This document shows positions 3,966 through 61,206 of a DNA stretch of 62,450 bases, one piece after another. Under the pieces are notes generated by a model. That model had not been told where the DNA came from, did not search any database, and saw nothing but the letters and a program-made list of their open reading frames with translations. The stretch covers positions 1 through 62,450 of the IMG/VR virus record IMGVR_UViG_3300014720_000036. The stretch is one strand, 5' to 3'. The first letter of the stretch is position 1; the number at the start of each line of letters is the position of its first letter. The position numbers and the translations under genes were made by a program. The stretch comes from a virus. Lineage: Duplodnaviria; Caudoviricetes.

Positions 3966-4994
3966 CTATCTATGCCACTTCTTGATCGCAACATGGGCTG
4001 CGATGCCACGGTGGGAATTTCTTGCGATCTCCGCCTCGACCATCGATCTCGTCAGCCCCGAGAGGATCATGTCGTTGATGTCCTTGAAGCCCGCCACCCT
4101 ATCGCTCCACACGCAGATGGCGTGTGGGCTCTCTGCGATCCTGTCCATGGCATCCACGACCTGACGGTTCCTCGGCTCGTTGTCGAGCGCATATCGGAGT
4201 TCCGAGTCCTTGAGTTTCTCGGGGATGTTGAGGGCGTTCGACAGACCGATCATGGCGACTGCGTTGTCGAGGAACAGGCTGTCGATGGGACCCTCCACGA
4301 CCGTCACGGACTTTCTCGGATCGACCCTGTCTAGCCCATACCACATCTTGTCGGAGTCCTTGTCAGCCTTGACGGTGATGTACCTGATGCCACCCTTGGC
4401 GAGGAGCCGACCCTGCGCACCGACCAATCTCCCATCCCCGTCGATGATGGGTATCACGACCCTCGCCTCGGAGGGGATCCTCACCTCGGAATCGATTCCC
4501 TTCGCCCATTCCGAGTAGTCATCGGTGTAGTACAGGCGGCACAGGGCATCGCTCGGGATGCGTCTCTTCCGAGCCCATGCCACCGCCTCATGGCTGTCGG
4601 ACATATCGCAGAGCCTAGGTATCTGCCTGAGGAGGCTGTCCTCGCCCGTGCGGGTGTGCGGGTGTGCGGGTCCGTGCGTGAGCGTGGGTGCGCCCGTGCG
4701 CCCGTGCGAGGGTCCCATCTCCTTCAAGACCTCAAAGGTGTACTGCCTGTGGAGGTTGCCATCGAAGCCCTTGAGGAACCAGCCGAGGCTCGCTCCGTAG
4801 TCGCAGTTGTGGCACTTGACCGAGAACGAGCCCTTCTTCTCGTAGAAGTAGAAGCGACAGATGTTGGCGTTCTTCTTACTGTCACCGCAGATCGGGCACC
4901 TGCACACGGCGAGGTGGTTTGCCTTCTTCCATGCGAAGCGGTCCAACTTGGGGGACAGCATGTTGATGTACTTGGTGTCGAGGAACAGGGGCAT
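3966..4994 (-). CDS. gp61: DNA primase (T4 gp61-like)
   Basis: Zn finger RCPICGDS..KCHNC; TOPRIM motifs VEGPIDSLF, DNEPRN and KDINDM. Confidence 0.95.
   Translation of the reverse strand: MPLFLDTKYINMLSPKLDRFAWKKANHLAVCRCPICGDSKKNANICRFYFYEKKGSFSVKCHNCDYGASLGWFLKGFDGNLHRQYTFEVLKEMGPSHGRTGAPTLTHGPAHPHTRTGEDSLLRQIPRLCDMSDSHEAVAWARKRRIPSDALCRLYYTDDYSEWAKGIDSEVRIPSEARVVIPIIDGDGRLVGAQGRLLAKGGIRYITVKADKDSDKMWYGLDRVDPRKSVTVVEGPIDSLFLDNAVAMIGLSNALNIPEKLKDSELRYALDNEPRNRQVVDAMDRIAESPHAICVWSDRVAGFKDINDMILSGLTRSMVEAEIARNSHRGIAAHVAIKKWHR
4643..4710 (+). repeat. Dispersed TGCGCCCGTG-family repeat cluster (inside primase linker)
   Basis: cgcccgtgcgggtgtgcgggtgtgcggg...cgtgggtgcgcccgtgcgcccgtgcg. Confidence 0.75.
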
Positions 4995-5122
4995 AGTTAT
5001 GAGACCAAACCATAAGTTTATGACAACTAAGCCTCACGGAGACTTGTTGAATACAATCTTATGAGATTCTACTTTCTATAACTTTTTGGGCTAAATGTCC
5101 GCATACATAGCGGTTTGACCCA

Positions 5123-5791
5123 TCAGACGGCAGGTGGATTCCGCCGCCGAAACTTGCGCTTGGACAACAGACCACGCCGACCTGGAGGCTCCTGCCCAGG
5201 TGACACACCTGCGATGTTGCCATGTCCGACCGCATTGACGGGAGCGTCCTCTTGGACATCGTGGATCGTGAAGACCATGCTCCCGACCTTGTAGATCGGG
5301 AATCCGAAAAACTCGTTCGTAGGCAGGAGTTGGCTGTCGAGGGAGACCCTTCGACCACGAATCAGGTATGACCCTGCTTCGATTGCCACGGGCTGCGTTT
5401 CCTCGTTCATCGTCCAATGCAGCAGACCTTTTCGGTCTAGTTGCTCGGAAACGATCCTTTCGATCAAATTGGAATCGGCTCCCTCACCCTCGCAGTACTC
5501 CTTGAGGAGGATCGTCCTCACGGCGAACTCGCTGCGATTGGCGAGGTTGATGCCCTTGCCGAGGAGGCAGGGCGAGTTCACCTCAATGAGCCTCTTGATG
5601 TTCCATGCAAGAGTATAGAACAGCGAGGGGTATGCTCTCTTTTCCTCCGCCGTCTTGAGGCTCGCCCGAGGCTTGAGGATCTTGCCGTCCGCATTGATGA
5701 TGCCCAACTTGTAGGCTTCCATCTGATTCCATGGGGTGGCGATGATCTGTGCGAACTTGTAAGAGATCAGCAGGTCTACGACGGATGCCAT
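5123..5791 (-). CDS. Conserved hypothetical protein of aquatic T4-like phages
   Basis: N-terminus DLLISYKF..IATPW..EAYKLGIINADGK and C-terminal EDAPVNAVG motif resemble cyanophage-type core hypotheticals. Confidence 0.75.
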   Translation of the reverse strand: MASVVDLLISYKFAQIIATPWNQMEAYKLGIINADGKILKPRASLKTAEEKRAYPSLFYTLAWNIKRLIEVNSPCLLGKGINLANRSEFAVRTILLKEYCEGEGADSNLIERIVSEQLDRKGLLHWTMNEETQPVAIEAGSYLIRGRRVSLDSQLLPTNEFFGFPIYKVGSMVFTIHDVQEDAPVNAVGHGNIAGVSPGQEPPGRRGLLSKRKFRRRNPPAV

Positions 5792-7518: not shown

Positions 7519-8685
7519 TCAGGGCTTGATCTTCGATCCGTGAGCCTTGCCGAAGGACAGCATGTCCTTGGCGGCTGCGAGGTTGTCCTCTGCATCTTCA
7601 CGGCTCAAGCCGCTGTCCTTCAGTTTCTTGGGATCCTTGGAGATCGACTCAAGCCACTTGACGGACGCACGAAGTTCCTTTTCGGTCGGCTGTGCAAAGC
7701 CTTCCTCGACCGCTTCGGTCTTCAACCCGATCACGAACCTCTTCGCTTCTGCCACCGTCTTGAACAACTTTGACCACTTACCCTGACCCGTTGCACCGCC
7801 ATCAGGCGGGTAGACCGTGTAGCCCGTGACCTTCTTGGGATTCTTGTAGTTCTCCCTCTCTTGCCAAATCTCAGCGATCTTCACGCCGTTTCGGTAGCAG
7901 CCGAGGATCTTTTCGTCGGGAAGCCCTTGATACGGAGGAGTCTTCTCCTTGAAGAACTCGACTCCACCCATGCTACTGTCACCGAAGTCCTCGGTCAGCG
8001 CATCGGCGGACTCGAAGGTCAACTTGTAGTTGCCCCGATTGTCCACGGGTGTCTTCCAATAGTCGATCAACGGATGCTTCAGCCTCGACACAAACTGCTT
8101 TGCCGCCTCGAAGCCCTTCGCATCGGAACCAAACACGGCGACAGGAAATCCTCCCATATCGTCGTAGTTCGTGTGCCAAACACCCCAACCTCTCTTGGTT
8201 GCCTCGGGATTCGTGGAGTTCGGGCGTAGGAGGGCGAACATCTTTCCGTTCTTTTGCACGACGAATTCCCCGCCGCCAACCTCCTTGGCGATCACGGCTT
8301 CGGTGAGCGCATCGGCGGACTCGACTTCTTCCTTCCTGTGATATCCCTTCTTGGCGGCAGCGTCCTTCTTCTTCTGGATGTTCTTCAGGAAGGCAGGGGG
8401 AAGATCCTTCTTGCCCTTACCCTCTTCAATGTGCATCTCGACAGCCTTGGTGAATGCGTTGGCTTCCTTAGTGGTGCCACGACATCCGCAGTCGGAGACA
8501 GCCTCGTTGAAGTGGTCTCGCAGGAGAGAGCGACGATCCTCAAGGATCATCTCATCTCCGATCTGTGCAGCAGTCTTCTCAGCCGCCTCGTTGAGGCAAG
8601 GATCGATGTCGATGTCGTTCCTATGTTCCGAGAGGAACTTGGTGATGTCGGCGACGATCTTGGAATCGAAAGGATTGCTGAACAT
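7519..8685 (-). CDS. Modular internal-head-type protein with ESADALTE linkers
   Basis: Start moved to MFSNPF (AGGAG site; CTAAATA at 8708-8714). Two ESADALTE linkers plus TEAVEE separate small modules. Confidence 0.75.
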   Translation of the reverse strand: MFSNPFDSKIVADITKFLSEHRNDIDIDPCLNEAAEKTAAQIGDEMILEDRRSLLRDHFNEAVSDCGCRGTTKEANAFTKAVEMHIEEGKGKKDLPPAFLKNIQKKKDAAAKKGYHRKEEVESADALTEAVIAKEVGGGEFVVQKNGKMFALLRPNSTNPEATKRGWGVWHTNYDDMGGFPVAVFGSDAKGFEAAKQFVSRLKHPLIDYWKTPVDNRGNYKLTFESADALTEDFGDSSMGGVEFFKEKTPPYQGLPDEKILGCYRNGVKIAEIWQERENYKNPKKVTGYTVYPPDGGATGQGKWSKLFKTVAEAKRFVIGLKTEAVEEGFAQPTEKELRASVKWLESISKDPKKLKDSGLSREDAEDNLAAAKDMLSFGKAHGSKIKP

Positions 8686-8981: not shown

Positions 8982-11900
8982 TCAGCCTTTCTTCTCGGGG
9001 TTGTGACCCCAAACTTTGAGTGCTAGCAACTTGCGGGTCGGGCGACCCTTCTCGTCCCTCATGCCGCCCTTGGCTCCCTTCATGCGGGAGATGAAGTTGA
9101 CCTGCTTACCCGCCCACTTCCAATCGTTGGCGGTCCACTTCCCCATGGGGGTGTCGAGCATTCGGATGATCGCTCGGGCGGAGTCACGACCGCTAGTGAT
9201 CTTCTTGCCACCTGTGCCCGCCTTCCCTGCCTCCTTGCGTGAGAGACCCGCCTCCTCGCCCCCCTCGGAGTCAAGGAAGGATTGGATCTCCTTGCCCGAC
9301 ATGTTTACGAGTTTTTGCCACTCTTTGTAGAGGCTGCGCTTCTCGTCATCGATCTCCTTGCCGTCCTCTTCTTTGAGCCGTTCACGCTCTCCAGGAGTAT
9401 CACGCTTGTAGGTCTTGACGATCTCGTCGCTGCCGATCTCAAGGGGACCACGCTTCGTGAGGGCGGTCCATTGCATCACGCTGTGGATCTTGTCGGCTTC
9501 CATGAGCCATTCGTCGGTCACGACGAGCGACTCGGACTTGCCGTGCATCTTCCATGCCGTGGCGTAGAAGACATCCTTCCACTTCTTACCGTACCGCTTC
9601 TTGAACTCCGCCTTGACCTTCTCCTTCTTGGAGAATCGTCGGGCGGGTCCGCTAGGAGGACTCACCTCCATGAGCAGGTAGTCGAAGTCCTCGTTGATGT
9701 CCGTGGGTTCGTCCGTGCCCATTTCGGCTGCACGGACATCCTTCAGGTGATCGATGTATGCCCTGACGAGTTCGGTCGCCTCGGACATCTCACGCTCACG
9801 ACAGCGATCCTCGTAGGCGATGGCGAGACGCAACTTGGATGCCGTCCCTTCCTGCGACTCATCGATTGACCACAGCCTTTCCAAAGCCTCGTCATGTTCG
9901 TACCCACTCTTGAGTGCCTTGACCTTGCCCTTCTTCTCCAACTTCTTGAAGAGGGCGGTGTACTTGGACGGCTTCGTCTTCATTTTCTTCTCCCTTGGGT
10001 TCACGAACTCCCATGTCTTGGGATCGTCATCGGACATCCTCTTGCGCTTGGCGAGTTCCCTGCTTCGGGTCTTCGCCTCGCCCTTGGAGAGCCCTGAGAC
10101 ATACTTCTTCGGGAGACCTGATGCCTTGTCCTCGGGAGACTTCTTCGTCTTTCCTGACTTGGTCTTGAACTTCTTGCCCTTGGTGGCATCCGCTTCCGTA
10201 ATAGGGGTGCCATCGGTCTCGTATTCCATGCCGAGGACGGGCATGAATGAGTAGAGGATTTTCCCCACGGGGGTCAGATCCACCTCTACTTGGGCGAGGA
10301 TCTTACCAAGCAACTTGACGAGAAACCTCCCCAACAGGGTCTTCTGCATGAAGGTGTTGAGGGTTGTGGTCGCACCCATGACCTTGTATGCGTGGACGAT
10401 GATCTCTGCCTTGGTGGACTCAAGTTCACGCTTGAACTGCTCGGGGGTGAGGACCTTCTTCTTGTTGGCGAGGGTGAGGATCTTGGTTGCCACCACGGGA
10501 CTCTTGATGATGTCCTTGGCGGCATCGGTGACCTCCTTGGCGGACATCTCCGTGATCTCCTCTTCCTCCTCTTCCTCCTCGCCGCTGCGCTTCTTGGAAG
10601 GGTCGGGCTGCGGGTAGATGCCCTCTGCGGGATCCACGATGCTGCCCGTCTGACCGAGGAACCGAAGACCGATGAGTACCTTGCTCGACATGTGGCTGCG
10701 GTCGCCGAGCGAGAACTTGATGTTTGGGTAGTGCTTGCCGTGGAAGTCGATGTCCATCAGGACCACAAGACGCTTCTTCTCGCCGACCCCCGACTTGACT
10801 CTGATGCGGCTAATGATCTTTTTTGTCACCTTCTTGCCGTTTGCCAAGGTGAAGGTGACAGTACTGTCACCATTGTTCTTGATGTCCGTGGCGTGGATCA
10901 TGTTGTAGCCGCTGTTACCCGTGTCGATCTTGGCTCGGTATTCGACACCATCGACCTTCACAGGCTCACGGACGGCGAGGTTGGAAAACAGTTTCCAATT
11001 CGCCTTGACGAGGATGTGGTTGAGGAAATCCTCGACCAACTCCTCGCCCTTGACATTGTCCTTGCCCTTGCCGTCCTCGTAGTAGCGGTAGTAGATGTTG
11101 CCGCTGCCAGGACTTGCGTTCATCTCAATGATGTACGGCTTGCCCTCGTTGATGACATGGTCGATGCCGACATAGTAGCACTTGCTCACCCGAGCGGCTT
11201 GCTCGACCAACTTCACCTCGTCATCGGAGAGTTGGTGCGACCCACCCTTCGATCCTCGGGCAATGTTCGTGCGGAAGTCCTTCGGTGCCTTGTCCCTCTT
11301 GGCGCATGCGAAGATCTTTCCGTTGAGGACGATGCTGCGGACATCGTTCTTGAAGTCGGGGAGGAACTCCTGAATGATGACCTCGGCACCGAACTTCCAT
11401 AGGGTCTGAAGCACCGACTTCAGGCTCTCCATGCTTTCGATCTTGGAGACACCGATCCCCTCTGCGCCCGTGAGGGTCTTGCAGATGACGGGGAACTTGC
11501 CGCCGATCTCCTTCACGGCTGCTTCGATGTTCGCCTCGCTCGACACATATGCGGTCTTCGGGTGCGGAAGTCCGTGCTTCTTGAGGGCGATGGCGGTCTC
11601 CAACTTGTTTGCGCAGAGTTCCATGCCCCCCTTCTCGTTGACCATGAACACGCCGTTGTTCTGAAGGATGGTCAGGATGGCGACACCGACCTCGCTGTTC
11701 ATCACGCCGCCACGGACAATTGCAATGGTGTCGCTCGGGATGATCGTTGCATCCTTGCCCTCACCATCGTAGTTCTTGATGACGATCTTCTTCGACACCA
11801 CGCTCGACAGGTCGATCTGCGCCTTCTTCGTCTTGACCGCATAGAAGGGGATCCTGCGCTTCTTGCAGATCGCCTCCATCTTCTCAATGGTGTCCGAGAG

Positions 11901-13738: not shown

Positions 13739-13759
13739 GGGATTGTTCATATTTATGAG

Positions 13760-13838: not shown

Positions 13839-15308
13839 TCATGTCCAACCGTCATCGTCATCCACAGGGGGCTTCCGTGCGCCCGTGCGCCCGTGCGCCC
13901 GTGTGGGTGCGCATGCGTTCACGCCCGTGCGTGGGTGCGCCCGTGGGCGGGAGGGTTTGTCATCGTCTTCCTCGTTGGCGGCTGCATTGACGAGGTTCGC
14001 CATGGGGTCGCTGACATCGAACAACTTCATCTTGGAGCGGTCGATCCCGACCACGAACTTTCGGTTGGTGACAACATCGTTGTAGCGGTTCTTCAGTTGC
14101 TTCACCATGACCTGACCGAGTTCGTCCAACTGCTCGGTGGCGATCAAAGCAAACATGAAGTCGGCGGTTGCGGGGAGACCGAACGACTCGGAGGTGTCGG
14201 TTAGATCGACATCGGTGTTGCCGAAGCCCGAGCGGTTGGTCTGGGTGGCGGTGAAGATCGGCACCGACATCTCGACGGCGAGACCTCGGAGTTCCTCCGC
14301 AATCGCCTTGATGTATGTGTACGAGTTGACATTCGCCCCAGGCTTGAACCGCACCGAAGCACAGATGTTGAGGTAGTCGATGAAGATGATGTCGGGCTTG
14401 AAGTCCTTCTTCAGCCGCAGTTCGTCAAGCAAGTGCCTGAAGTGCCCTGCGTTCGCAGATGCCGTGGGATACTCCTTGATGAGGAGTTTGCCCGTGATCC
14501 CCGCCGTCACCTTGGAGAGCCGCTTGGCGTAGATGTCCATCGGCAACTTCTTGAGGTCATCCAAGGTGATGTCCATGAGGTTGGCATCGATACGCTCGGC
14601 GATCCTCTCCTCAGCCATCTCACAGGTGATGTAGAGGACATTCTTGCTCTGAGAGAGGCAGTTGGCGGCGTGGTGGCACATGAACAGGGACTTGCCCACG
14701 CCCGTACCCGCAAGGATCACATTGAGGGTCTTGTCGGGTACGCCGCCGTTGGTGATCTTGTTGAACATGTCGAGGTCGAACGGGGTCTTCTTCTCGACAC
14801 GGTGGTAGAAGTCGTACCGCTTCTCAGCATCCTCAATGAAGTCGTGACCGATGTGTTCATCGAACGAGATGCTCAGGGCTTCCTTGAGGATCTCGGGGAT
14901 AGCAGCCTTGGACCTGCCCTTCGACCGCTTCTCGTCAAGGAGTTCCACGGACTCCATGAGTGCGTTGTAGACCGCCTTGTCCTTGCAGAACTTCTCGGTC
15001 TGGTCGATGAGCCATTGGAGGTCGGGATGCTCCTCGGGTTCGCCGAGGAGGGGCAGGAGTCGGACGCACTCGTCGTACTCACCCTGAGACATCCCGTCCT
15101 GCTGCCCGAGGATGATCCCGAGAGCCTCCTCGGTCGGAGGGGCGTTGTACTTGGAGGTGAACTCCGAGATCGTGAGGAACAGCCTCTTCTCGCAGGGGTC
15201 GTGGAAATACGCCTCCTTCAAAAAGGGAAGCACCCGTCGAGTGAACTCGGACAGGTGCAACAGGCTCCTGAGGATGGCGACTTCGATCTTGTCCGTGTTA
15301 GGTTGCAT
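13839..15308 (-). CDS. gp41: Replicative DNA helicase (T4 gp41-like)
   Basis: Walker A AGTGVGKS, IFIDYLNIC, IAEELRGLAV, TATQTNR, SESFGLPATAD and KQLKNRY. Confidence 0.97.
   Translation of the reverse strand: MQPNTDKIEVAILRSLLHLSEFTRRVLPFLKEAYFHDPCEKRLFLTISEFTSKYNAPPTEEALGIILGQQDGMSQGEYDECVRLLPLLGEPEEHPDLQWLIDQTEKFCKDKAVYNALMESVELLDEKRSKGRSKAAIPEILKEALSISFDEHIGHDFIEDAEKRYDFYHRVEKKTPFDLDMFNKITNGGVPDKTLNVILAGTGVGKSLFMCHHAANCLSQSKNVLYITCEMAEERIAERIDANLMDITLDDLKKLPMDIYAKRLSKVTAGITGKLLIKEYPTASANAGHFRHLLDELRLKKDFKPDIIFIDYLNICASVRFKPGANVNSYTYIKAIAEELRGLAVEMSVPIFTATQTNRSGFGNTDVDLTDTSESFGLPATADFMFALIATEQLDELGQVMVKQLKNRYNDVVTNRKFVVGIDRSKMKLFDVSDPMANLVNAAANEEDDDKPSRPRAHPRTGVNACAPTRAHGRTGARKPPVDDDDGWT
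13875..13950 (+). repeat. Dispersed TGCGCCCGTG-family repeat cluster (helicase C-terminal tail)
   Basis: Three tandem GCGCCCGT units followed by cgcccgtgcgtgggtgcgcccgtg. Confidence 0.8.
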
Positions 15309-22246: not shown

Positions 22247-22918
22247 TCAAGATCCCGTCTTGCGCATAATGGCGATTCGGGAGTAGAAGTGGATCCACTC
22301 CACCCCGCTCGGATTTGCGCCCGTGTGTGGTGCCGTGTCGAAGTCACGGATGATCCCGTTGAACAGATTGTCGATCATCCGCCTATCGTTGTTCCACTCT
22401 ACTCCCGTGTTGTACTTCATTCCAGGCCATTGCCCACGCACGATGTGGTCGCCAAGGTTCTTGCCGAGATAAGAGCATCCAAGGTCTTCGATGATGTACA
22501 ACCCCCCCGCACGGAGGCAGGGAAACAGAAGATCGAAAGACTTGACCGTCAGTTCATTGACATGAGAACCATCGTCAAGGATGACATCGAACTGACCACC
22601 TGCGTCCTTGACGGCTGCATTCGTGATCTCGGGATCGGATTGGCTTCCGATGAAAACCTTGATCCTGTCGGACTGATACTGCTTGCACCTCGGATCGATG
22701 TCGATTCCATAGATCATGGCTTTGGGAAAGTACTCACGCCACATCCTGTGGGAGCATCCATCACGAACACCGATCTCAAGCAGTTTGATCGGTTGCTCAC
22801 GGAGACCGTTCAGATACTTGTCGTAGATGTCGAGGTAAGTAGAACCGCCAAACTTATGGTTGGCATCGTGCTTGTCGGTCTGATGCTTGCGACCGATCTC
22901 TTGTAGGGTCTCGTTCAT
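22247..22918 (-). CDS. Sugar O-methyltransferase (MycE/TylE-like, class I SAM)
   Basis: TDK..H..Y, LLEIGV, YGIDID, DVILDDGSH and GGLYIIEDL. Confidence 0.82.
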   Translation of the reverse strand: MNETLQEIGRKHQTDKHDANHKFGGSTYLDIYDKYLNGLREQPIKLLEIGVRDGCSHRMWREYFPKAMIYGIDIDPRCKQYQSDRIKVFIGSQSDPEITNAAVKDAGGQFDVILDDGSHVNELTVKSFDLLFPCLRAGGLYIIEDLGCSYLGKNLGDHIVRGQWPGMKYNTGVEWNNDRRMIDNLFNGIIRDFDTAPHTGANPSGVEWIHFYSRIAIMRKTGS

Positions 22919-26826: not shown

Positions 26827-27576
26827 TCAATCGTCCGTATCGGGTGGAGCCTCGCAGAAACCGTCGAAGGTCTCGTATGAGTAGCCCGAGTCCGTGATCG
26901 CTCCAAGCACGGTGTCCAACTCATCGGGGGTCACATGCGCCCGTGCGTGGGTACCCGTGTGCGCAGGTGCGCCCACGGGTCGTATATCGTGGAAGATGAT
27001 GACGGGGCTCACCCCCTCTTCGACCCCTGCCCTGATCTTTTCAACCACCCTGAGGAGATCTCCCCCACGAATCTTGGATTCGGTCGGAACTCCCTGTGTG
27101 TCCATCGTGGATTGCAGGGGAATCGTCCTTCCGCCCGAAAGCATCGTTCCTGAGTTGGCCGAGCGGACGAAGCAGAACAGACGCTCCACCTCGGAGAACA
27201 GGGCATCATCGAACTTGGTGTGTGGGAATGCGAAATGGGTCGGATCGAATCCCGCCTCGACCATCTCCTCCATGGCGGGGATCACCTCGTCATCGATGTA
27301 CTTGTCGATCCCGTATCTCTTGCTGTATGCAAGGGCATCACGGTGCTTCTTTCCATGGCAACCTATGACATGACCATCCGAGCGGAGGTCGTGGAGCATG
27401 TCGATCTCTTCGTCGCCGAGGAGGAAAAACGAGTCCACATAGAACACAGCCTTCGCTCTGTGATTCTTCAGGATCGCCCTCGCACCGTGCCAATGGGAGA
27501 CCGAGTGGTCATCGAAGCACAGATGGACATGCGGATGGCGCACATCCTTGTCGAGGAACCTGCCGATGGGCTGCAT
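26827..27576 (-). CDS. Polysaccharide deacetylase (NodB/CE4)
   Basis: LCFDD, IGCHGKKH, FAFP and IIFH; CTAAATA at 27582-27588. Confidence 0.8.
   Translation of the reverse strand: MQPIGRFLDKDVRHPHVHLCFDDHSVSHWHGARAILKNHRAKAVFYVDSFFLLGDEEIDMLHDLRSDGHVIGCHGKKHRDALAYSKRYGIDKYIDDEVIPAMEEMVEAGFDPTHFAFPHTKFDDALFSEVERLFCFVRSANSGTMLSGGRTIPLQSTMDTQGVPTESKIRGGDLLRVVEKIRAGVEEGVSPVIIFHDIRPVGAPAHTGTHARAHVTPDELDTVLGAITDSGYSYETFDGFCEAPPDTDD
26936..26980 (+). repeat. Dispersed TGCGCCCGTG-family repeat cluster
   Basis: tgcgcccgtgcgtgggtacccgtgtgcgcaggtgcgcccacggg. Confidence 0.7.
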
Positions 27577-27594: not shown

Positions 27595-30129
27595 TCAGGC
27601 GAACAGGGTGTCGAGGCTAGCCTCGTCCTCGACCTTCCAGCCGACGATGTCGAGCAGTTTCTTGAGGGGCTCAAGGAAAGCCTTGTCGAACTGCATCTCC
27701 CTGTCGATGTAGCGATCCAAGCCGAACTCTTCGGGAAGCACGGTCACGAACGAGATGACATGCTCACGGATCGGGTTCGGCTCCTTGAGATAGCAGAACT
27801 TGATCTTGTCCCCCTCCCTGATGAGGGGGTACGACTTCGTGAGTTTCTTCGTCTTGACGAGATGGTTGTATATGAGTCCACCCTTGACGGCGATGGGTGT
27901 GGACTTCTTGTAGATCGACGCTGCGTCTGCATACTCGTCAAGGTTGTTGCACCCACGGGGGAACGAGATCTGCTGCACCGAGAGCCCCATGAACTCGTCG
28001 TGGAATCCATCCACGAATGACCGAAGGGCACCCTCGTCAGATGTGAGGATCAGACTGATCGCCTGATGGAGGCTGCTGCGAACGACCTGCGGAGTCGATG
28101 ACCGCACGACCTCAAGACCCGTCACCTTGATGTCGGGTTCGTCCATGTAGACATCGTCCTCGCCCATGTGTACGGCGAGGCAGTACCTCTTCTTCGCAGC
28201 CCACAGTCCACGCATTGCGATGTTCTCACGCTTCATGCTCATGCGGTTCGCATATGCGTTCATGCCGACCGAGAGTTCTTCGTACCACCTTGAAATCCTT
28301 GGGAGGATGATCTCGTTGCAAGACCTATTGAGGAACTGCACCGTCTCCTTGGTGGGTTTCTCACCGAGGACCTTGGAGACCAATGGACCGAGGTGCAGGT
28401 ACACCGAGTCCGTGTCGGAGGCGATGACATAGTCGTGACCTTCCGTGGCGCAGGTCTTGTTGAGGAAGCGGTTCAACTTCTGTTCGATCCACTTGATCGA
28501 CAACTTGCCCGACCATGTGATCGCCTCGGCGATGCGGAGGTCGTAGTATCGGAAGTACTGGTTGCCCATGGCACCGAATGCCGAGTTCAACTGCACCTTG
28601 CGGACGAGTTGGAAGTTGTGGTACTTCGATACCTCCTTCTTTTTCGCCCCTACCTCCTCGGGGGAAGCCTTGTCCGAGTTCTTTTTCAGCCAACCCTTGG
28701 CTTCGACCGAGAGCCTCTTGTATTCCTTACGCTGCTTGTACATCGTGTCCATGAGTTCGGGGAGGAACCCATGGATGTCCCTGCGGTACATGGTGCCGTT
28801 ACCCGCCACGGAGAGATTGCGCTCCCGTGCGGAGGCAAGGGCGGGGGCAAACTTCTCGGGATCGGCGAGAAGGGTGTCCGCAGTCATGTCGGGGATCCTC
28901 TCGTCGGCGATGGTCTCGGGTGAGAGGTTGTACTGCATGATGAGGTGCGGGTACAGACTGTCGAGGTCGAACGAGGCGACCCACTCATAGGGGCTCGGCT
29001 TCGGCTCCTTCACATAGGCACCCGCAAACTGCTCACGCTTCTCGACCGATGGCTTCGGAGGAATGGCGATCCTCTTGGTCCGCAGGTAGTGGTAGATGAT
29101 GCTGTCCCACATGCGCACCTGCGAGAAGACATCGTCAAGGTTCGTCCGTGCGCTGTAGGCGAGTGCCTGAGCGAGTTCGATCAGCCGCAACTTGTCCTCA
29201 AGTTGGAGGACGAGGCGGGTGTCCTTGATGTTGTACTCCATGAACCGTTGGAAGTCCTGCTTGTACAGGTTGGAGAGGGTACCGATATCGGAGTAGTCGA
29301 TCTTGCCCTCGCCGAGTTCGATCATGGCGATGTGCTGCAACTTGTACGATTCACGGGTGACGAAGGTGAACTTCTTGTACAGGTCGTAGTAGTCAAGTAC
29401 CGAGATCCCCGCAAGGTCGTAGACCTGATTGTCTCTGTCCATCACGACAACCTTGCGGCTGCGGATCTCGCCCCATGGGGATAGCCTCTTGACCGCCTTG
29501 GGACCGAGGATTCGGCTGATCCTGCCGTGGAGATAGGGGATGTCGTACAGTTGGGCGTTCCACCCCGTGACGATGTCACAGTCGAGTTCCTCCCAAATGT
29601 CGAGGAACCTGTGCAGGAGACTCGCCTCGTCTGTGAACGAGTGGCACACGGCACCCTCGACGGAAAACTCCCCGAGCCCGAGGGCGTGTACCTCGTTTCC
29701 TTGGATCATCGTGATGGCATTGACACGCTCTCGGGGGTCATCGACCAAAGCGAACCCATCCTCGCTCTCGACCTCAATGTCGATGGAAAGGACACGGATG
29801 AAGGCGGGATCATACGGGATCTCGCCGTCGCTTCCGTACCTGTCAGCGATGAACTGATACTCGGGGTCGATGTCGCCATAGACACCGAAGCCGCCTACCC
29901 CATCGTACTGACCGACGAACTGCCTCGCCTCGTACATGGTGTCGAAGTCGATGGGATCGACCATCCTGCCGTCGATGGTTCGCCACGATGTCCCCTTCGG
30001 CTTGCTCGTCGTGACGAACAGGGTCGGTCGGTAGGTGAGGGATTCGTGGAGTCGGCGACCCTTCTCGTCGTAGCCCCTGTGGAGGATGCGACTGCCCTTG
30101 GTGCTGACGGCGGTGTAAAAGGGCTTCAT
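27595..30129 (-). CDS. gp43: Family B DNA polymerase (T4 gp43-like)
   Basis: Exonuclease DIEV, GWN..YDIPY and YNIKD; polymerase SFDLDSLYP, KVQLNSAFG, DTDS and KKRY. Start MKPFY. Confidence 0.97.
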   Translation of the reverse strand: MKPFYTAVSTKGSRILHRGYDEKGRRLHESLTYRPTLFVTTSKPKGTSWRTIDGRMVDPIDFDTMYEARQFVGQYDGVGGFGVYGDIDPEYQFIADRYGSDGEIPYDPAFIRVLSIDIEVESEDGFALVDDPRERVNAITMIQGNEVHALGLGEFSVEGAVCHSFTDEASLLHRFLDIWEELDCDIVTGWNAQLYDIPYLHGRISRILGPKAVKRLSPWGEIRSRKVVVMDRDNQVYDLAGISVLDYYDLYKKFTFVTRESYKLQHIAMIELGEGKIDYSDIGTLSNLYKQDFQRFMEYNIKDTRLVLQLEDKLRLIELAQALAYSARTNLDDVFSQVRMWDSIIYHYLRTKRIAIPPKPSVEKREQFAGAYVKEPKPSPYEWVASFDLDSLYPHLIMQYNLSPETIADERIPDMTADTLLADPEKFAPALASARERNLSVAGNGTMYRRDIHGFLPELMDTMYKQRKEYKRLSVEAKGWLKKNSDKASPEEVGAKKKEVSKYHNFQLVRKVQLNSAFGAMGNQYFRYYDLRIAEAITWSGKLSIKWIEQKLNRFLNKTCATEGHDYVIASDTDSVYLHLGPLVSKVLGEKPTKETVQFLNRSCNEIILPRISRWYEELSVGMNAYANRMSMKRENIAMRGLWAAKKRYCLAVHMGEDDVYMDEPDIKVTGLEVVRSSTPQVVRSSLHQAISLILTSDEGALRSFVDGFHDEFMGLSVQQISFPRGCNNLDEYADAASIYKKSTPIAVKGGLIYNHLVKTKKLTKSYPLIREGDKIKFCYLKEPNPIREHVISFVTVLPEEFGLDRYIDREMQFDKAFLEPLKKLLDIVGWKVEDEASLDTLFA

Positions 30130-38955: not shown

Positions 38956-39372
38956 TCAGATGATGGTGAGAGAGCAGTACGCCTTGCCCGTCATCCCCTT
39001 CTCTCGGTACCGACCGAAGATCAGGAGATGCCGTTTGTTCAGTTTCCCACCTCGGACGATGATCCCGTACTTGATGATCCGCCGTCCGAGGGTGATCTGC
39101 CACCCGTTCGACACAGCGAACGAGGTGATCGCACTTTTCATGCTTGTGCTGATATCGCCCCTGAACAGGTAGCCCTTTAGTCCCGCACCCCACACATTGG
39201 ATTCTTTCATCAGCCCGACCAACTGCATGATCTCGGCGTATCCCTTGCTATTTGACTTGCCCCTTGCACCCAACTTGGACGATAGGAGTGCCTTCGCCTC
39301 GGACGAGGGTGCGCAGGTGCGTGTGCGGCAGCGGAACTGCCTTGCCGTGTTGACGATCTGCCGCTTCGCCAT
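38956..39372 (-). CDS. Basic hypothetical protein
   Basis: Fills the gap between genes; ATAAATA just upstream (about 39379-39386). Confidence 0.55.
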   Translation of the reverse strand: MAKRQIVNTARQFRCRTRTCAPSSEAKALLSSKLGARGKSNSKGYAEIMQLVGLMKESNVWGAGLKGYLFRGDISTSMKSAITSFAVSNGWQITLGRRIIKYGIIVRGGKLNKRHLLIFGRYREKGMTGKAYCSLTII

Positions 39373-40541: not shown

Positions 40542-40543
40542 AA

Positions 40544-45295: not shown

Positions 45296-46279
45296 TCAGA
45301 CGGGGAGTTTGGGCTCGGAAGCCATGAAGTTGCGCTTCTTCATCGCCGTGAGTGCGACGATGCTCATCTCCTTGTCCTGTGGGCTCCAGTTCAGGACGAA
45401 GGGCATGTTGAGGTGATCCTTGCCGATGTCGAGAATGATCGCCTTCCAGTTGACCGACTTGCCCTTGATTTGTTGGGCGTACTTCGTGAAGGTCTTTCGG
45501 AAAGCGTCCTGCAACTCAGGGATGCTCACGGTTCCGCCGTATCCACGGCTACCGTTGATCCGCTCCCAGAAGTGCTTGGTGAATGCGATGTCGAGACCCG
45601 CCTGAGCGAACAGAGCGTCGAGCATCGACTCAAGCCGCTTGAGATCGTTCCATGTCACGAAGTTGTGTTCTTGCGCCTGTGCGGGCGCAAGCGAGCGCAC
45701 ACCCCCGCCCGTGCGTACACCTGCGCCCGTGGTCGGGCGACCCGTGATGATCGCCTCGCTGATGCCTCCCTTGAGACGGGCGAGGATTGCCTGAGGGATG
45801 CGGACCTTCTTGCGACCGATCTGTCGGCTGTCGCTGATGGAGTTCTCCTCAAGGGTCTCGTCAAGATCCCAAGGACCGTAGTGACCCGCCGAGAGCATCT
45901 TCTTCCGCATCTGCTCAAAGGTGTAGCGGAAGTAAGTGCCCACCTCGTTCGTTTTGATATTGCCGATGGCGTAGTAGACAGACTTCGGGATCTCAATTCG
46001 CTTGCCGTTGCTGTGGTCGTAGACGGTCTCTGCGTCCTCGACCCACGCATGGGCGAACCGCTGTCCCTTGACGGGTCCCTGACCGTAGACCAAGGCATGG
46101 ACCATGACGATCTTCCCCGCCTTGGCATCCTTGCTCTCTAGGTTCGTCCCCGTAGCCGCCTTGCCGAACTGCGCCGTCATCATCAGGAGGTTCGCCGCTG
46201 CGACCATGCAGTCGCCCGTACCCTTCTTGTAGTTCTTGCGCTTCGTAGCCTCGGCTATGTGTTCGTTGAACGACTTCAT
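45296..46279 (-). CDS. Putative internal head polyprotein (Cys-His transglutaminase-like module + alpha/beta module)
   Basis: Leader MKSFNEHIAE; GDC..HAWVE..VYD; LEE and ISE linkers; FTKHFWERIN module. Confidence 0.75.
   Translation of the reverse strand: MKSFNEHIAEATKRKNYKKGTGDCMVAAANLLMMTAQFGKAATGTNLESKDAKAGKIVMVHALVYGQGPVKGQRFAHAWVEDAETVYDHSNGKRIEIPKSVYYAIGNIKTNEVGTYFRYTFEQMRKKMLSAGHYGPWDLDETLEENSISDSRQIGRKKVRIPQAILARLKGGISEAIITGRPTTGAGVRTGGGVRSLAPAQAQEHNFVTWNDLKRLESMLDALFAQAGLDIAFTKHFWERINGSRGYGGTVSIPELQDAFRKTFTKYAQQIKGKSVNWKAIILDIGKDHLNMPFVLNWSPQDKEMSIVALTAMKKRNFMASEPKLPV
45672..45746 (+). repeat. Dispersed TGCGCCCGTG-family repeat cluster
   Basis: tgcgcctgtgcgggcgc..cgcccgtgcgtacacctgcgcccgtgg. 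Confidence 0.65.
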
Positions 46280-51960: not shown

Positions 51961-52314
51961 TTACTTGACCGTGATCTTTGCGATGCGAAGCGTGTCCTCA
52001 AGTCGGCTCTCGACAAGGGCATGACTCTCCCCCTGCTCCATGCGCTGCCTGATCTCAAGGATCTGAGCATGGAGTGCGGCGAACCTTGCGAGTTCTGCCA
52101 CGACCTTGCGCTCGACGCTCGTCATGCGGTCACGCACCTGCGCAGGGTTGCGCCCGTGCGTGGGCGTAGGCGTGGGCGTAGGCGTGGGCGTGGGTGCGCC
52201 CGTGCGCACGGGAGACTGCTCGGTCAGCGGATGCTGTTGGGTCGGCTGCACCTGTGTCGCCGAGTTCTTCCTACCGCCGAGGATTCCCATCGCATCCGAG
52301 ATGATGTCAGACAT
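51961..52314 (-). CDS. Hypothetical protein with PT tract and coiled coil
   Basis: Start MSDIISD with AGGAG site; HPLTE linker-like site. Confidence 0.6.
   Translation of the reverse strand: MSDIISDAMGILGGRKNSATQVQPTQQHPLTEQSPVRTGAPTPTPTPTPTPTHGRNPAQVRDRMTSVERKVVAELARFAALHAQILEIRQRMEQGESHALVESRLEDTLRIAKITVK
52149..52211 (+). repeat. Dispersed TGCGCCCGTG-family repeat cluster with 6-mer tandem
   Basis: tgcgcccgtgcgtgggcgtaggcgtgggcgtaggcgtgggcgtgggtgcgcccgtgcgcacgg. Confidence 0.8.
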
Positions 52315-53267: not shown

Positions 53268-53288
53268 GATCCACATATTTAGCCAAAG

Positions 53289-53327
53289 AGAAACCCCCTG
53301 TGAACCGAGGCTCACGGAGGGTCGGGG
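53289..53327 (-). terminator. Probable intrinsic terminator
   Basis: ccc-tgtga..tcacg-gaggg stem with TTTCTCTTT on the minus strand. Confidence 0.5.
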
Positions 53328-53355
53328 AAAGGATCTCGTTGTTGTCAGTCGTTCG

Positions 53356-54195
53356 TCACGCTCGGGCGGCACCGAAGATCGCAGCGAGGTGTCCCTCGGT
53401 GTAGATCTTCTTCGCCTCGGCGAGGGCAGCAGCGGTCACCTCGGCATCGTCGTAGACCGCATTCACATTCGTGAGGGCAGTCCACACGACCTCGTCCGTG
53501 TTCGGATCGGGCTTGAGACCGACTCGCCAACCGTATGCTCCCTTACCCTTCCAGATCACCTTACCCGTAGTCCCGAGCGGAACCTTGCGCCCTGCCACGA
53601 CCTTCACCGTGCTGTTTTTTTCGACATTTCGCACGGCTTTCTCTCGGGCGGCGTTCGTGGTGTCAGCGACGAGTCGGTTGATCACCGTCGTGCGGATCTC
53701 CTCAAGGCGATTGGGATTCGTCACGACCCGAGCCTTCGCAGCGTTGACGATGGTCTCCAACTTGAGGCGCAGGTTCGGCTGCGAGGCGAGAACCAAGTCG
53801 ATAGTCGCCTTGGTCTCGTCGTGCAGTTGACGGTAGCGGACTTCGCCGACCCGCCCGACCCCTCGCACATCAAGGAGTCCGTGGAACCGAATCTCAACCG
53901 ATTCGGTAGTCGGGTTGTAGGTGTAGATCCGCAACCCGTAGGTCGCCTCGGTGCTATCAGGCACATCCATATCCGTGTGCGCCCTTGCGTAGTGCGAGAC
54001 CTTGTCGGTCTCGACTCGGAGAACCTCGGAGGCGACGGTCTGCGTGATCGCATTCTCGACCTCAGCGAGATCCGTTCGGAGGTAGAAGTGGATCTCGGGG
54101 TAGGTCAGGTTGGACACCGTGACCTTCACGGGAGAGGTCGGGTCGAGGGCGAGGTCGGCGGGGGTCGGGAGGGTAGTGGTCGGGAGGGTGGTCAT
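53356..54195 (-). CDS. Early hypothetical protein with C-terminal SH3/KOW-like module
   Basis: VKVVAGRKVPLGTTGKVIW..RVG; AAGGA site; own promoter and terminator. Confidence 0.75.
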   Translation of the reverse strand: MTTLPTTTLPTPADLALDPTSPVKVTVSNLTYPEIHFYLRTDLAEVENAITQTVASEVLRVETDKVSHYARAHTDMDVPDSTEATYGLRIYTYNPTTESVEIRFHGLLDVRGVGRVGEVRYRQLHDETKATIDLVLASQPNLRLKLETIVNAAKARVVTNPNRLEEIRTTVINRLVADTTNAAREKAVRNVEKNSTVKVVAGRKVPLGTTGKVIWKGKGAYGWRVGLKPDPNTDEVVWTALTNVNAVYDDAEVTAAALAEAKKIYTEGHLAAIFGAARA

Positions 54196-55126: not shown

Positions 55127-55429
55127 CTAGAAGTATGCACTCGACAGGTGCGGGGATTGCGGGGGATGGTTGATCGGGGTGTACCCGATCCATGATTTTT
55201 GCTTTGCCTTGAGCCATGCGGGAGCGGAGTCGCTCCGCTTGATCCCCCCTCCACGACCGTAGATGAACGATACGGAATCTCCGTAGTGTTCCTCCAACAG
55301 TCGCTTGATGACGGGAGAGCAGGTTCCATGGGCTCGGGCAAGGTCCTTCAACTTCAGCGTCTCACCTCGGTCTAGTGCCTCGGTGATCGTGGCGAAGTCG
55401 AGTATGACCTTCTTACGGGGTCGTGGCAT
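55127..55429 (-). CDS. Putative HTH DNA-binding protein
   Basis: MPRPRKK..LKDLARAHGTCSPVIKRLL..GRGGGI. Confidence 0.6.
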   Translation of the reverse strand: MPRPRKKVILDFATITEALDRGETLKLKDLARAHGTCSPVIKRLLEEHYGDSVSFIYGRGGGIKRSDSAPAWLKAKQKSWIGYTPINHPPQSPHLSSAYF

Positions 55430-55508
55430 TGTGCGATCTTCCAAGCGGCTGATCGTGATGTTCTTATCGACCTCAGTCACCGCATTTGAAGCCGATATAC
55501 GAAAAAAT

Positions 55509-55718
55509 TCAGAACCCGAACAGATGACCAATCAGCCCCACTATGAGGATGAGCGGCGAGAGGGCGATGGTGACGATGATCGTCATCAGGATGGACACGA
55601 TGATCCATCCGAAGAACCCCCCACATGAGAAGATGCTGCCGCTCAACACGAAGTAGAGACCACAGCAGATGAATGATCCGAAGAGGATCAACTGTAAAAG
55701 GAATGCGGCTGCTTTCAT
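55509..55718 (-). CDS. Small membrane protein
   Basis: Almost entirely hydrophobic, 2 TM helices; directly after an early promoter. Confidence 0.6.
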   Translation of the reverse strand: MKAAAFLLQLILFGSFICCGLYFVLSGSIFSCGGFFGWIIVSILMTIIVTIALSPLILIVGLIGHLFGF

Positions 55719-59915: not shown

Positions 59916-60832
59916 GGAGATCGAATCCATTCTCGCAGTCTGTCGAGTTCTTGCGGCTTGGATCTTATGTACCCCTCACGGTCACGCCATCCAAAAATGA
60001 ACTCTACCCATGGACTCTGTCCTCCACGAAGAGATCTATTGTGTTGACGCTCCGCAGTCAACGGCACCTCATGGTCGGAGATCCTGACTCTGATATCTCC
60101 CTTGGAGTAGTACCTAGACTGACTCCCTCCCTGCGCTTTACGGTCGGACTTGAATCCCGCCGATCTAAGGAGTGCCTGTGCGGTCGAAATGAGACGGGCT
60201 ACCGTGGCTTTCGCAACCACTTCTTGCGCCTCTGACTGTGCCTGTGATGCAGAAGCGTCACGGTCTCTATCTCGTTCAAACTGCGAGTGTAGAGTCCTAC
60301 CCTCTGCTTTCTTCCATCGGTCTATCTCTGCCTTGGCTTTCTTGTTTGCCTGAGTGTTCGATAGTCCCTCTGCCTTGGCGGCGGCAACAATCATCTTTGT
60401 GATGCGGTCTCGCTCCAACTCATATGGATGCCAGCCGACACTCTCAAACCGCATGTCGTACCTGCCCTGTAGTTCCGATGACAGCCTCGCTGCGATTTCG
60501 GCACCGCTCTGACCGAGTTCATCGAACTTCCTCTTCACCGCTGCGGCGGTGCTGCCGAGGGAGAGGAGCCTCTTGGCGACGGAGACCGTCTTGGGATCCG
60601 TGCCCTTCGGCACGGTGTTCACGATGCGGGTGATGTGTGCGATGAGTTGCCCGAGGACGGCGGCGATGTGGACATCCTGCATCCGTGCGAAGTCGCCGCT
60701 CCTCGACTGTGCGTCCTTGAGGATCCGCTCTGCCGTCTTGAGGTAGGCGGAGAGACCACGCTCGGTGTACACCTTCGTGTCGGCGGTGGGTGCCCCCATC
60801 ACCTCGGTCAGGTAGTTAGCGAATGTCCTCAT
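59912..60832 (-). CDS. Putative internal head protein (helical + SxSRY/RISDH module)
   Basis: Leader MRTFANYLTE. Confidence 0.75.
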   Translation of the reverse strand: MRTFANYLTEVMGAPTADTKVYTERGLSAYLKTAERILKDAQSRSGDFARMQDVHIAAVLGQLIAHITRIVNTVPKGTDPKTVSVAKRLLSLGSTAAAVKRKFDELGQSGAEIAARLSSELQGRYDMRFESVGWHPYELERDRITKMIVAAAKAEGLSNTQANKKAKAEIDRWKKAEGRTLHSQFERDRDRDASASQAQSEAQEVVAKATVARLISTAQALLRSAGFKSDRKAQGGSQSRYYSKGDIRVRISDHEVPLTAERQHNRSLRGGQSPWVEFIFGWRDREGYIRSKPQELDRLREWIRSP

Positions 60833-61206
60833 CGGAACCCTCCGCCCACGACCCTCGCCATCAGGGGACCGATATCACGCAGGGCTGCGGACTTCGCCAC
60901 CGACTTGCCGTCTGCGTCGATGCCGACTGTGCCGTTCGGATTGAAGATGATGACGAGTCGCCTCGGTCCCGACCTCGGTCTGAACTCGACCGAGTCGAGG
61001 CTCATCCGAGAGAACGGCGGTCCAAGATCATTCTGCACACCCGTGCGCCCCTGTGCGTGTACACGGGATAGTGCCGCCATCAACTCATCTGTCCTGCGGT
61101 TCAGTTCGTTCGCCTTCGTCTGTACGAAGGGCATGACCGAAGAGCCAAGGTAGTTGGCGAAGGTGCCGTAGGCGGACTCGGCTACGAAAGACAGGAACGA
61201 CCTCAC
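60829..61206 (-). CDS. Putative internal head protein
   Basis: GTG start RSFLSFVAE; GAGGTG ribosome binding site. Confidence 0.7.
   Translation of the reverse strand: MRSFLSFVAESAYGTFANYLGSSVMPFVQTKANELNRRTDELMAALSRVHAQGRTGVQNDLGPPFSRMSLDSVEFRPRSGPRRLVIIFNPNGTVGIDADGKSVAKSAALRDIGPLMARVVGGGFR
61035..61067 (+). repeat. Weak TGCGCCCGTG-family repeat cluster
   Basis: gcacacccgtgcgcccctgtgcgtgtacacggg. Confidence 0.5.

Follow-up and report, generated by a model that had tools for sequence, protein, structure and literature searches.

Why should a primase, a helicase, a deacetylase and several otherwise unrelated proteins of one phage carry the same short DNA word in the same orientation? The question is raised by a stretch of 62,450 nt (hereafter the window), a fragment of a T4-like myovirus from lake water or freshwater in which all genes lie on the minus strand. 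An earlier note on this DNA had claimed strand-biased clusters of a repeat motif, dispersed inside protein linkers, and the clusters are real. The motif TGCGCCCGTG has 13 exact matches on the plus strand and none on the minus strand of the window, where 100 dinucleotide shuffles give a mean of 0.20 and a maximum of 2. As all genes share one strand, this strand bias is inseparable from gene orientation in the window. The sense-strand unit, CACGGGCG, has an 8-nt period, is nearly free of T and contains no stop codon in any frame; with a period of 8 nt, all three frames are forced.

Other measures recover the same family. The most frequent 8-mer of the window is CGCCCGTG, present 24 times as against four for its complement, and the cluster family (D1, D5, D7 and D11) ranks first among its direct repeats. 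TRF detects period-8 arrays of 2.6 to 3.6 perfect tandem units at 4648-4671, 4688-4708 and 13875-13903. The 18-mer reported earlier was also borne out: it occurs without mismatch at 4683 and 52189 and with one mismatch at 13930, where 0.02 occurrences are expected. It stands in three genes and two reading frames.

A trivial origin of these matches, by chance or as an effect of codon usage or GC content, would predict that they disappear into an appropriate null. In part they do. Two isolated matches, at 11463 and 37512, lie within folded domains and simply encode Thr-Gly-Ala, and the weak sites at 22316, 39307, 42991, 44691, 53973, 57646 and 59137 are short and occur at about the null count (∼4); the two weaker clusters that had been listed at ∼22316 and ∼39307 therefore exist as sites but lie close to null level. 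The main signal persists. A null that leaves all proteins and their codon usage intact gives a count of 1.25 for TGCGCCCGTG, with a maximum of 3 in 200 replicates, and a second codon-level null gives 1.07, against 13 observed. We also scanned for clusters of at least six 8-mers lying within one mismatch of any rotation of the unit, which yielded 13 sense-strand loci, where one codon null gives 3.95 (at most 7) and the other 2.28 (at most 4); the two antisense loci are both palindromic portions of sense clusters. Together with the shuffles, the recurrence of the 18-mer and the GC islands of two relatives (L159 and G013, described below), these results leave the trivial reading with next to no probability. 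For the six main clusters it is already ruled out.

Table 1. Repeat clusters, weaker sites and exact motif matches in the 62,450-nt window
Feature	Position	Strand	Gene or protein context	Translation
Primase cluster	4643..4710	-	gp61-like primase 3966-4994, linker between Zn-finger and TOPRIM part	SHGRTGAPTLTHGPAHPHTRTG
Helicase cluster	13875..13950	-	C-terminal tail of gp41-type (DnaB-type) helicase 13839-15308	RPRAHPRTGVNACAPTRAHGRTGARKPP
Deacetylase cluster	26930..26990	-	CE4 polysaccharide deacetylase 26827-27576	GAPAHTGTHARAH
Cluster in ORF 45296-46366	45672..45735	-	PHROG 23027, function not known	TTGAGVRTGGGVRSLAPAQAQ
Cluster in ORF 51961-52422	52149..52212	-	protein of no known function	RTGAPTPTPTPTPTPTHGR
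Degenerate cluster in ORF 60829-61206	61035..61067	-	protein of no known function	HAQGRTGV
Weak cluster	39296..39325	-	N-terminus of ORF 38956-39372	RTRTCAPSSEA
Single unit, about null level	22315..22327	-	near C-terminus, methyltransferase gene 22247-22918	HTGAN
PolB loop site, degenerate in window	28805..28855	-	family-B DNA polymerase 27595-30387	
TGCGCCCGTG exact matches	4689, 4697, 11463, 13878, 13886, 13894, 13936, 22316, 26936, 37512, 45722, 52149, 52195	+		

The six main clusters are translated in frame as linkers rich in H, R, T, G, A and P, in the primase, the helicase, the deacetylase and three proteins of no known function (Table 1). The assignments to primase (PHROG 47), DnaB-type helicase and polysaccharide deacetylase hold, whereas the proteins that had been called cargo proteins have no family match. 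As claimed, the DNA is read in different frames, giving RTGAPT in the primase and in ORF 51961-52422, RAHPRTG in the helicase and HARAH in the deacetylase. The primase cluster consists of three GTGCGGGT units and 2.6 GTGCGCCC units on the plus strand, and orthologous clusters are present in the related contigs G001, G005, G009 and G013. In the helicase, the conserved acidic and aromatic tip DDDDGWT* follows the cluster directly, and in the deacetylase the cluster directly follows IIFHD, the last catalytic motif. The cluster in ORF 45296-46366 could form a long hairpin (fold z -2.06), and that in ORF 51961-52422 encodes a Pro-Thr repeat between two motif copies and includes a 14-nt palindrome. 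Of the weaker sites, 39296..39325 corresponds to an exact CACGGGCG at the orthologous site of G013, and the methyltransferase gene carrying the single unit is absent from G001.

The idea that the peptides are insertions into these proteins is correct only in part. The primase linker is longer by ∼6-8 residues than that of cyanophage S-8S55, where a linker already exists at the same place, and the helicase tail exceeds typical cyanophage tails by ∼18 residues, yet a tail is present in all 80 relatives compared. The primase structure predicted from a four-row alignment had a mean pLDDT of 42, too poor to judge the linker.

If the DNA itself is constrained, codons should be retained inside the clusters even where any synonym would serve. 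At identical G, A, R, T and P residues, the codon is the same in G013 at 23 of 32 cluster positions compared with 300 of 804 elsewhere, and in G009 at 14 of 25 compared with 242 of 766, both against a ten-gene background. The same-codon test of cluster versus rest gives 24/33 versus 94/307 for G013, 15/26 versus 87/307 for G009 and 48/53 versus 276/441 for G001; for G004 the difference (17/25 versus 123/242) is not significant (p = 0.14). These tests are pairwise comparisons that share the window and the phylogeny, with cluster limits set by the analyst. Identity to G001 is higher in the helicase cluster (95% versus 86% in its flanks) and in the deacetylase cluster (97% versus 81%). The earlier note had proposed that the constraint acts on the DNA, and named two outcomes that would speak against it: clustering no greater than in a codon-shuffled null, and peptides conserved without their DNA. 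Given the motif excess over the codon nulls and the excess of same codons in G013 and G009, neither describes what we find. If this constraint is real, the coding linkers of a compact virus hold either additional information written at the nucleotide level or a repeat that propagates itself, with consequences for gene annotation, for codon-based evolutionary tests and for the recoding of phage genomes.

Selection could instead favor the peptide, a basic and flexible H/R/T/G/A/P segment suited to replisome linkers and tails, with the likeness in DNA a by-product of descent, slippage and GC-rich codons. Several observations agree with such a view. The deacetylase peptide HTGTHARAH is kept in four lineages (the window, G001, G005 and G013) despite synonymous changes at 3-4 of its nine codons, and G004 has HTGTHARGH; RTGGYGR[TM]GAREKP is conserved, again with synonymous change, in the helicase tails of low-GC relatives. 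Distant cyanophage helicase tails likewise combine acidic and basic stretches with an aromatic tip, the cyanophage primase has a linker at the same site, and the codons for Gly, Ala, Pro, Arg, Thr and His are necessarily GC-rich at their first two positions. Judged from these sequences, part of the conservation of the clusters, as in HTGTHARAH, probably does act at the peptide level. As an account of the whole family, the peptide is a doubtful candidate, and we consider it quite unlikely. The 10-mer remains ∼10 times above expectation with all proteins fixed, identical DNA words are translated in more than one frame, conservation of synonymous sites is higher than in folded domains, and like arrays occur in apparently non-coding DNA elsewhere. 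Moreover, the primase linker peptide differs much between the window and G001, whereas its DNA differs little. Ordinary Pro-Thr or Gly-Ser linkers resemble the clusters in their interdomain position and flexible composition, including the real Pro-Thr repeat at 52149-52212, but neither exact DNA words shared between genes nor synonymous-site constraint is expected of them. The clusters offer a concrete, testable case, in which the same peptide in different codons can be set against the same DNA frame-shifted into another peptide.

The history of the clusters can be followed in relatives. Five related contigs (45-57% GC) have clusters at orthologous sites, and in low-GC relatives the clusters are nearly the only GC islands: three of the four islands in G013 (48% GC, 53 kb) correspond to the clusters of the orthologous deacetylase, helicase and primase genes, and both islands in L159 (43% GC, 21 kb) are the helicase and primase clusters. 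Such GC islands at fixed primase, helicase and deacetylase sites could serve as a marker for this so-far uncultured freshwater T4-like lineage. All gaps read within clusters against relatives measure 3, 6 or 12 nt, including a 12-nt gap relative to G001 in 52149..52212 that preserves the frame. In the PolB loop, G001 and G005 have two perfect CACGGGCGCAC units within one replaced patch of equal length; the window and G004 have a different sequence there, and G009 has no motif. This loop is the only clear gain event.

The reading we favor, tentatively and with a little less than an even chance of being right, is that a family of short, stop-free DNA repeats with the unit CACGGGCG resides in DNA that encodes disordered linkers and tails in this freshwater T4-like clade, much as Rickettsia palindromic elements (RPEs) do in their hosts. 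New copies may arise by a copy-paste process such as template switching or ectopic gene conversion, for which the recombination-driven replication typical of T4-like phages would provide the setting, and replication slippage would then enlarge them. Copies would survive only where all frames are open, the encoded peptide is hydrophilic and flexible, and gaps come in threes. Because synonymous divergence would not be slowed by gene conversion without bias, an additional force that favors the sequence must be assumed, perhaps a bias in conversion or selection at the DNA or RNA level. The outcome would be repeat DNA hidden in protein linkers and partly co-opted as their basic segment. Within the material analysed, we found no termini, target duplications, transposase or nuclease tied to the repeats. 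Two observations run against a repeat element: the three oldest clusters are stably inherited instead of coming and going, and the peptides conserved through synonymous change (HTGTHARAH and RTGGYGR[TM]GAREKP) fit a role at the protein level.

RPEs are described as dispersed repeats of about 100-150 bp that lie in frame in unrelated genes, are translated and are apparently compatible with protein function, with a conserved peptide and MITE-like palindromes (PMC10969869). As so described, they share with the phage clusters the presence of one repeat family in several unrelated genes, translated in frame and free of stops. The phage blocks differ in being viral, in measuring 30-75 nt, in consisting of tandem octamers with no common hairpin where RPEs are palindromic, and in apparently overwriting pre-existing linkers instead of forming clean insertions. 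If the RPE-like reading is true, it extends the Rickettsia type of repeat DNA inside proteins to viruses. Among the papers listed by literature searches on motif strings and topic words, judged by title and the start of the abstract for the motif strings, none describes such an in-frame repeat in T4-like phages.

A different function for the same constraint is that the clusters are true cis-acting DNA or RNA sites, recognized in a single orientation by a factor of the phage or its host in packaging, the start of replication or recombination, nicking or transcription control, and placed in linker codons for want of space elsewhere in a genome so densely filled with genes. We regard this as possible, if on the unlikely side. 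It agrees with the synonymous-site conservation, with the persistence of the clusters as lone GC islands in relatives of 45-48% GC, with the de novo perfect units in the PolB loop and with the strictly uniform orientation of the motif (window 13:0, G001 14:0, G005 0:11), although orientation is confounded with gene strand. No suitable relative with a block of opposite-strand genes was found, antisense open frames being uninformative in these GC-rich contigs. An array upstream of a terminase gene in an unrelated phage contig, described below, points the same way. The clusters also lie somewhat nearer to synteny breakpoints (median 217 nt versus 679 nt at random, p ∼0.045), a post hoc comparison confounded with gene ends that gives only a hint.

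The properties expected of such a signal were largely not seen. Spacing of the 13 loci is random, with an interval CV of 0.88 versus 0.89 for random placement, and 53.5% of random placements were as regular or more so. Eight folds revealed no shared RNA structure (z = +0.46, -0.31, -0.98, -2.06, -1.56, +0.23, -0.72 and -2.15), and G4 predictions (four G3 tracts, loops of up to 12 nt) have no consistent strand, the only cases in clusters being at 13933 and 52162 on the plus strand. Unit number and make-up vary between sites. Rare-codon pausing at domain borders, a separate possibility, was not apparent from a CAI-like index, which is 0.87, 0.71, 0.67, 0.72 and 0.78 in five clusters and 0.79, 0.78, 0.74, 0.77 and 0.70 in the rest of the same genes. 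The binding partners that had been suggested, a ParB-like protein (52440-53372) and an HTH protein (55127-55531), have no Pfam match at E ≤ 0.001. In a PHROG search at E ≤ 1e-5 the first (52443-53372) matches one family of no known function and the second (55130-55531) none, which leaves both labels unconfirmed.

A comparable cis-acting site may be the stoperator of Cluster A mycobacteriophages, described as a short asymmetric motif, mostly in one orientation relative to transcription, at whose single sites the immunity repressor of these temperate phages binds (PMC9283540, PMC6550527). By that description, both motifs are short, asymmetric and scattered, mainly in one orientation, which in the window is confounded with gene strand, whereas here they form randomly spaced tandem arrays within ORFs of a T4-like and presumably lytic phage, and no repressor or other binder was found in our analysis.

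Tandem units in coding sequence, of a length not divisible by three, are also characteristic of the contingency loci in phase-variable genes of Neisseria and Haemophilus. The perfect copies of an 8-nt unit found here (2.6 to 3.6 per array) would suit on/off switches driven by slippage. Against such switching, contigs from three other runs (X3, X4 and X5; records 12, 20, 25 and 29) span the primase or helicase cluster with no gaps, a comparison in which contigs can mask rare copy-number variants. Among the 24 runs listed as containing this DNA, none is of RNA. An identical helicase array recurs in several independent viral contigs, gaps between lineages all preserve the frame, and the host genes include essential replication genes. 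We therefore consider contingency loci very improbable.

Similar arrays are found outside this lineage. Unrelated phage contigs G003, G016 and G017 carry them in apparently non-coding DNA; the array of G003 precedes an Sf6-type small terminase gene by ∼150-200 nt. A blastn search with the helicase cluster against 50,697 isolate phage records, with the low-complexity filter on, gave no match. A viral scan for two nearby units returned at least 118 loci, which are not a census and many of which are collagen-like or pentapeptide-repeat genes coding for Thr-Gly-Ala. A scan of a genome collection returned at least 120 matches, mostly single chance matches in high-GC bacteria, and among the matches listed the bacterial MAG G006 is the only clearly enriched one, with inverted octamer arrays (77 + 79 matches versus 11 + 12 in the control).

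A broader proposal, which we judge fairly unlikely, is that the octamer arrays are a cis-acting code of the freshwater T4-like clade, perhaps shared with further phages and with bacteria from these waters. They would be DNA or RNA sites that some factor reads in a given orientation, maintained by long purifying selection at synonymous sites in the linkers of replication proteins, the one part of the coding DNA that tolerates them. Polar octamers are familiar from Chi and from the FtsK-orienting KOPS, which occur as frequent single copies skewed with the direction of replication. The phage motif is likewise an 8-nt word with extreme strand bias, here confounded with gene orientation, but its loci are few and its units stand in tandem clusters, and the arrays of G006 are paired and inverted. 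The likeness between G006 and the phage lies in the same word CCCGTGNG and the 8-nt unit, sometimes within genes; the paired arrays of G006 could form long hairpins, whereas those of the phage have essentially a single arm and are much shorter.

The window has 13 copies of the 10-mer TGCGCCCGTG, all on the + strand and none on the − strand, compared with a mean of 0.20 and a maximum of 2 in dinucleotide shuffles. An 18-mer common to the primase gene, the helicase gene and ORF 51961–52422 is exact at 4683 and 52189 and carries one mismatch at 13930, TRF finds perfect period-8 arrays (table), and the clusters make up the window's largest direct-repeat families. These observations establish that the repeat clusters described in the earlier note are real. 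The most frequent 8-mer of the window is CGCCCGTG (24 copies versus 4 for its complement). The excess also holds against codon-shuffled nulls, the comparison named in that note: 1.25 copies of the 10-mer are expected when synonymous codons are permuted genome-wide with all proteins and codon usage unchanged (n = 200; maximum 3), and 1.07 when codon order is shuffled within genes, versus 13 observed. An objective cluster scan recovers 13 sense loci, versus 3.95 and 2.28 in the two codon nulls, and 2 antisense loci, both of which are palindromic portions of sense clusters. Some six clusters are robust, and the short ones at 22316, 39307, 42991, 44691, 53973, 57646 and 59137 are close to the null count; as an explanation for the whole set, chance has next to no probability. 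Hits at 11463 and 37512 were rejected as members of the phenomenon and are ordinary Thr-Gly-Ala codons within folded domains.

Related viral contigs were gathered by pattern scans and a helicase search, and five were aligned: G001 (~81% nucleotide identity to the window, GC 57%), G005 (~82%, 56%), G004 (~77%, 56%), G013 (~70%, 47.8%) and G009 (~71%, 44.7%). Strand counts are 14:0 in G001 and 0:11 in G005 for the 10-mer, and 10:2 in G013 for the 8-mer. G013 (53 kb) has only four stretches of at least 80% GC over 30 nt, and three of them coincide with the orthologous clusters of the deacetylase, the helicase tail and the primase linker; the 21-kb piece of G009 has two, one at the helicase cluster and one at the primase cluster. 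ORF 38956–39372 provides a fourth orthologous site at its N-terminus, where G013 retains an exact unit. Gaps read inside clusters are 3, 6 or 12 nt in all cases. Because contigs from three other runs span the primase or helicase cluster with 0 gaps, and an identical helicase array is present in several independent viral contigs, the arrays are stable in length over short time scales, with rare variants that may be hidden in contigs. Given this stability, and allowing for such variants, it is highly improbable that the clusters are switching loci.

Constraint at the nucleotide level was assessed at identical residues with four- or six-fold degeneracy, as the share of identical codons in the clusters and in the remainder of the three genes concerned. 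In these comparisons, which share the window and phylogeny, use cluster limits set by the analyst and may be somewhat biased toward identical codons by the alignment of low-complexity peptides, the clusters keep the codon at 24/33 positions in G013 (rest, 94/307), 15/26 in G009 (87/307) and 48/53 in G001 (276/441), with no significant difference in G004 (17/25 versus 123/242; p = 0.14). With only G, A, R, T and P and a ten-gene background, the values are 23/32 versus 300/804 in G013 (p = 1e-4) and 14/25 versus 242/766 in G009 (p = 0.015). Plain identity to G001 is higher in the cluster than in its flanks at 26930 (97% versus 81%), 13875 (95% versus 86%) and 4643 (90% versus 86%), and about equal or lower for the remaining clusters.

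The unit on the sense (−) strand is CACGGGCG. T is nearly absent from this strand of the clusters, and therefore a stop is impossible in any frame of either strand. The 8-nt period translates to the eight-residue unit HGRTGARA, pieces of which make up every cluster, and the 18-mer encodes RTGAPT in both primase and ORF 51961–52422 and RAHPR in the helicase. A motif kept purely for its peptide is contradicted by this difference in frame and by the codon nulls; we rank it third and consider it improbable. Protein function may account for some of the conservation, for example through the basic part of the helicase tail, because linkers pre-exist and certain peptides are kept. HTGTHARAH of the deacetylase is found in the window, G001, G005 and G013 with some codons synonymously changed (HTGTHARGH in G004), and RTGGYGR[TM]GAREKP recurs in low-GC helicase tails. 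In nearly all of 80 helicase relatives with a readable C-terminus, this end combines an acidic and a basic stretch with an aromatic tip, and the tail in the window is ~18 residues longer than typical tails. The proposal that the peptides are insertions stands only in part, since a cyanophage primase already has a linker at the same site, ~6–8 residues shorter than that of the window.

The DNA polymerase loop of G001 and G005 carries two perfect CACGGGCGCAC units, whereas the window and G004 have a common different sequence of equal length, and in low-GC G009 the loop is Lys-rich and unrelated. Because the change is a dense substitution patch between well-conserved flanks, this single event looks, from sequence comparison, like templated replacement and not gradual drift. 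The analyses show that the clusters form a repeat family at the level of the DNA. Its copies are translated, and disordered segments tolerate them; they have been inherited for a long time, their synonymous sites are under constraint, and patch replacement occasionally renews them. The likeliest reading, held at slightly less than even confidence, is a self-propagating or conversion-maintained repeat resembling the Rickettsia palindromic element (RPE). Such a repeat would require a biased force to maintain it, since divergence would not be slowed by conversion without bias. The phage clusters work like RPEs (PMC10969869) but lack their defining size and palindrome, and thus are not classed as members.

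A true cis-acting signal, as the earlier note had suggested, ranks second and is possible but rather unlikely. Stoperators (PMC6550527, PMC9283540) are similar to the clusters in orientation only. The spacing of the 13 loci along the window proved indistinguishable from random, and the proposed ParB-like and HTH partners have no Pfam or PHROG family backing either identity. No common RNA fold was found among the clusters, no consistent strand for G4 and no rare-codon cluster at these sites. Clusters lie somewhat closer to synteny breakpoints than random positions do (p ~0.045, in a post hoc test for which gene ends are a confounder).

Motif-string and topic literature searches found no published description of in-frame repeats of this kind in phages, and an isolate phage collection (50,697 records; blastn, low-complexity filter on) held nothing similar to the helicase cluster. 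Similar arrays occur in apparently non-coding DNA of three unrelated phage contigs: ~150–200 nt upstream of an Sf6-type small terminase gene in G003 (43% GC); within a ~1-kb simple-repeat region (~880–1830) of G016 (48% GC), where (CACACG)n is mixed with CACGGGCG units; and as three 36-nt tandem units at the contig end of G017. The G016 region is open in all frames and is probably non-coding. A bacterial MAG (G006; 5.8 Mb, ~70% GC) has 77 + 79 copies versus 11 + 12 for a reversed control, arranged as paired inverted octamer arrays, (CCCGTGNG)n, ~100 nt, (CNCACGGG)n. Many per genome and often at contig ends, these appear to represent a hitherto undescribed octamer-array repeat from a high-GC bacterium.

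The window is the entire record, a single contig of 62,450 b, with all long ORFs on the − strand. The T4-type replication module that Pfam identifies comprises a family-B DNA polymerase, a gp44-type clamp loader, a DnaB-type helicase, RegA and a RecA/UvsX-like protein that includes a Hint/intein part; PHROGs identifies the primase. Further Pfam hits include ThyX, a dUTPase-like gene, a sugar-modification block and three N6/N4 DNA methyltransferases. The nearest isolates are T4-like cyanophages (identity at most 62% for helicase, 38% for primase), and runs with the window sequence come from lake-water and freshwater metagenomes. The sister contig G001 is 25% complete (CheckV-type), and therefore the window is a fragment of a large myovirus. 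Because 25157–26178 has no counterpart in G001, the intein appears, at the sequence level, to be confined to one lineage. The second repeat family (D2, D4) probably reflects a repeated protein module.

Clusters and other features of the window
Feature	Position	Remarks
Primase cluster	~4643; arrays 4648–4671, 4688–4708	Reads SHGRTGAPTLTHGPAHPHTRTG
Helicase-tail cluster	~13875; array 13875–13903	Reads RPRAHPRTGVNACAPTRAHGRTGARKPP, then DDDDGWT*
Deacetylase cluster	~26936	Reads GAPAHTGTHARAH, directly behind IIFHD
Cluster-bearing ORF	45296–46366	
ORF with cluster	51961–52422	Reads RTGAPTPTPTPTPTPTHGR
Cluster-bearing ORF	60829–61206	
Collagen-like (G-X-Y) repeat protein	1342–2844	Several runs' contigs break or rearrange here
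Second repeat family, CCTCGGTCAGCG[GC]ATCG... (D2, D4)	7989–8339, 48273–50639	Within function-unassigned ORFs of 407 and 1247 aa
1200-residue fusion	8982–12584	RimK-type ATP-grasp, Zn-protease-like domain, DUF3140
Extra ~575 nt in G001	G001 coordinates 13245–13821	Downstream of helicase gene; missing from window; <100 nt from motif site
tRNAs Ile(TAT), Tyr, Gln, Leu(CAA), Arg(CCT)	13759–13833, 40386–40542, 41624–41697, 43890–43963	
Methyltransferase gene	22247–22918	Not in G001; <100 nt from motif site
RecA/UvsX-like gene	25157–26796	Hint/intein domains; ~1 kb absent from G001
Three DNA methyltransferases	30126–33525	Adjacent to each other, beside DNA polymerase gene
tmRNA, full-length	40645–41005, − strand	Rfam 93.7 bits; tag AKFNVQPRQRLALAA
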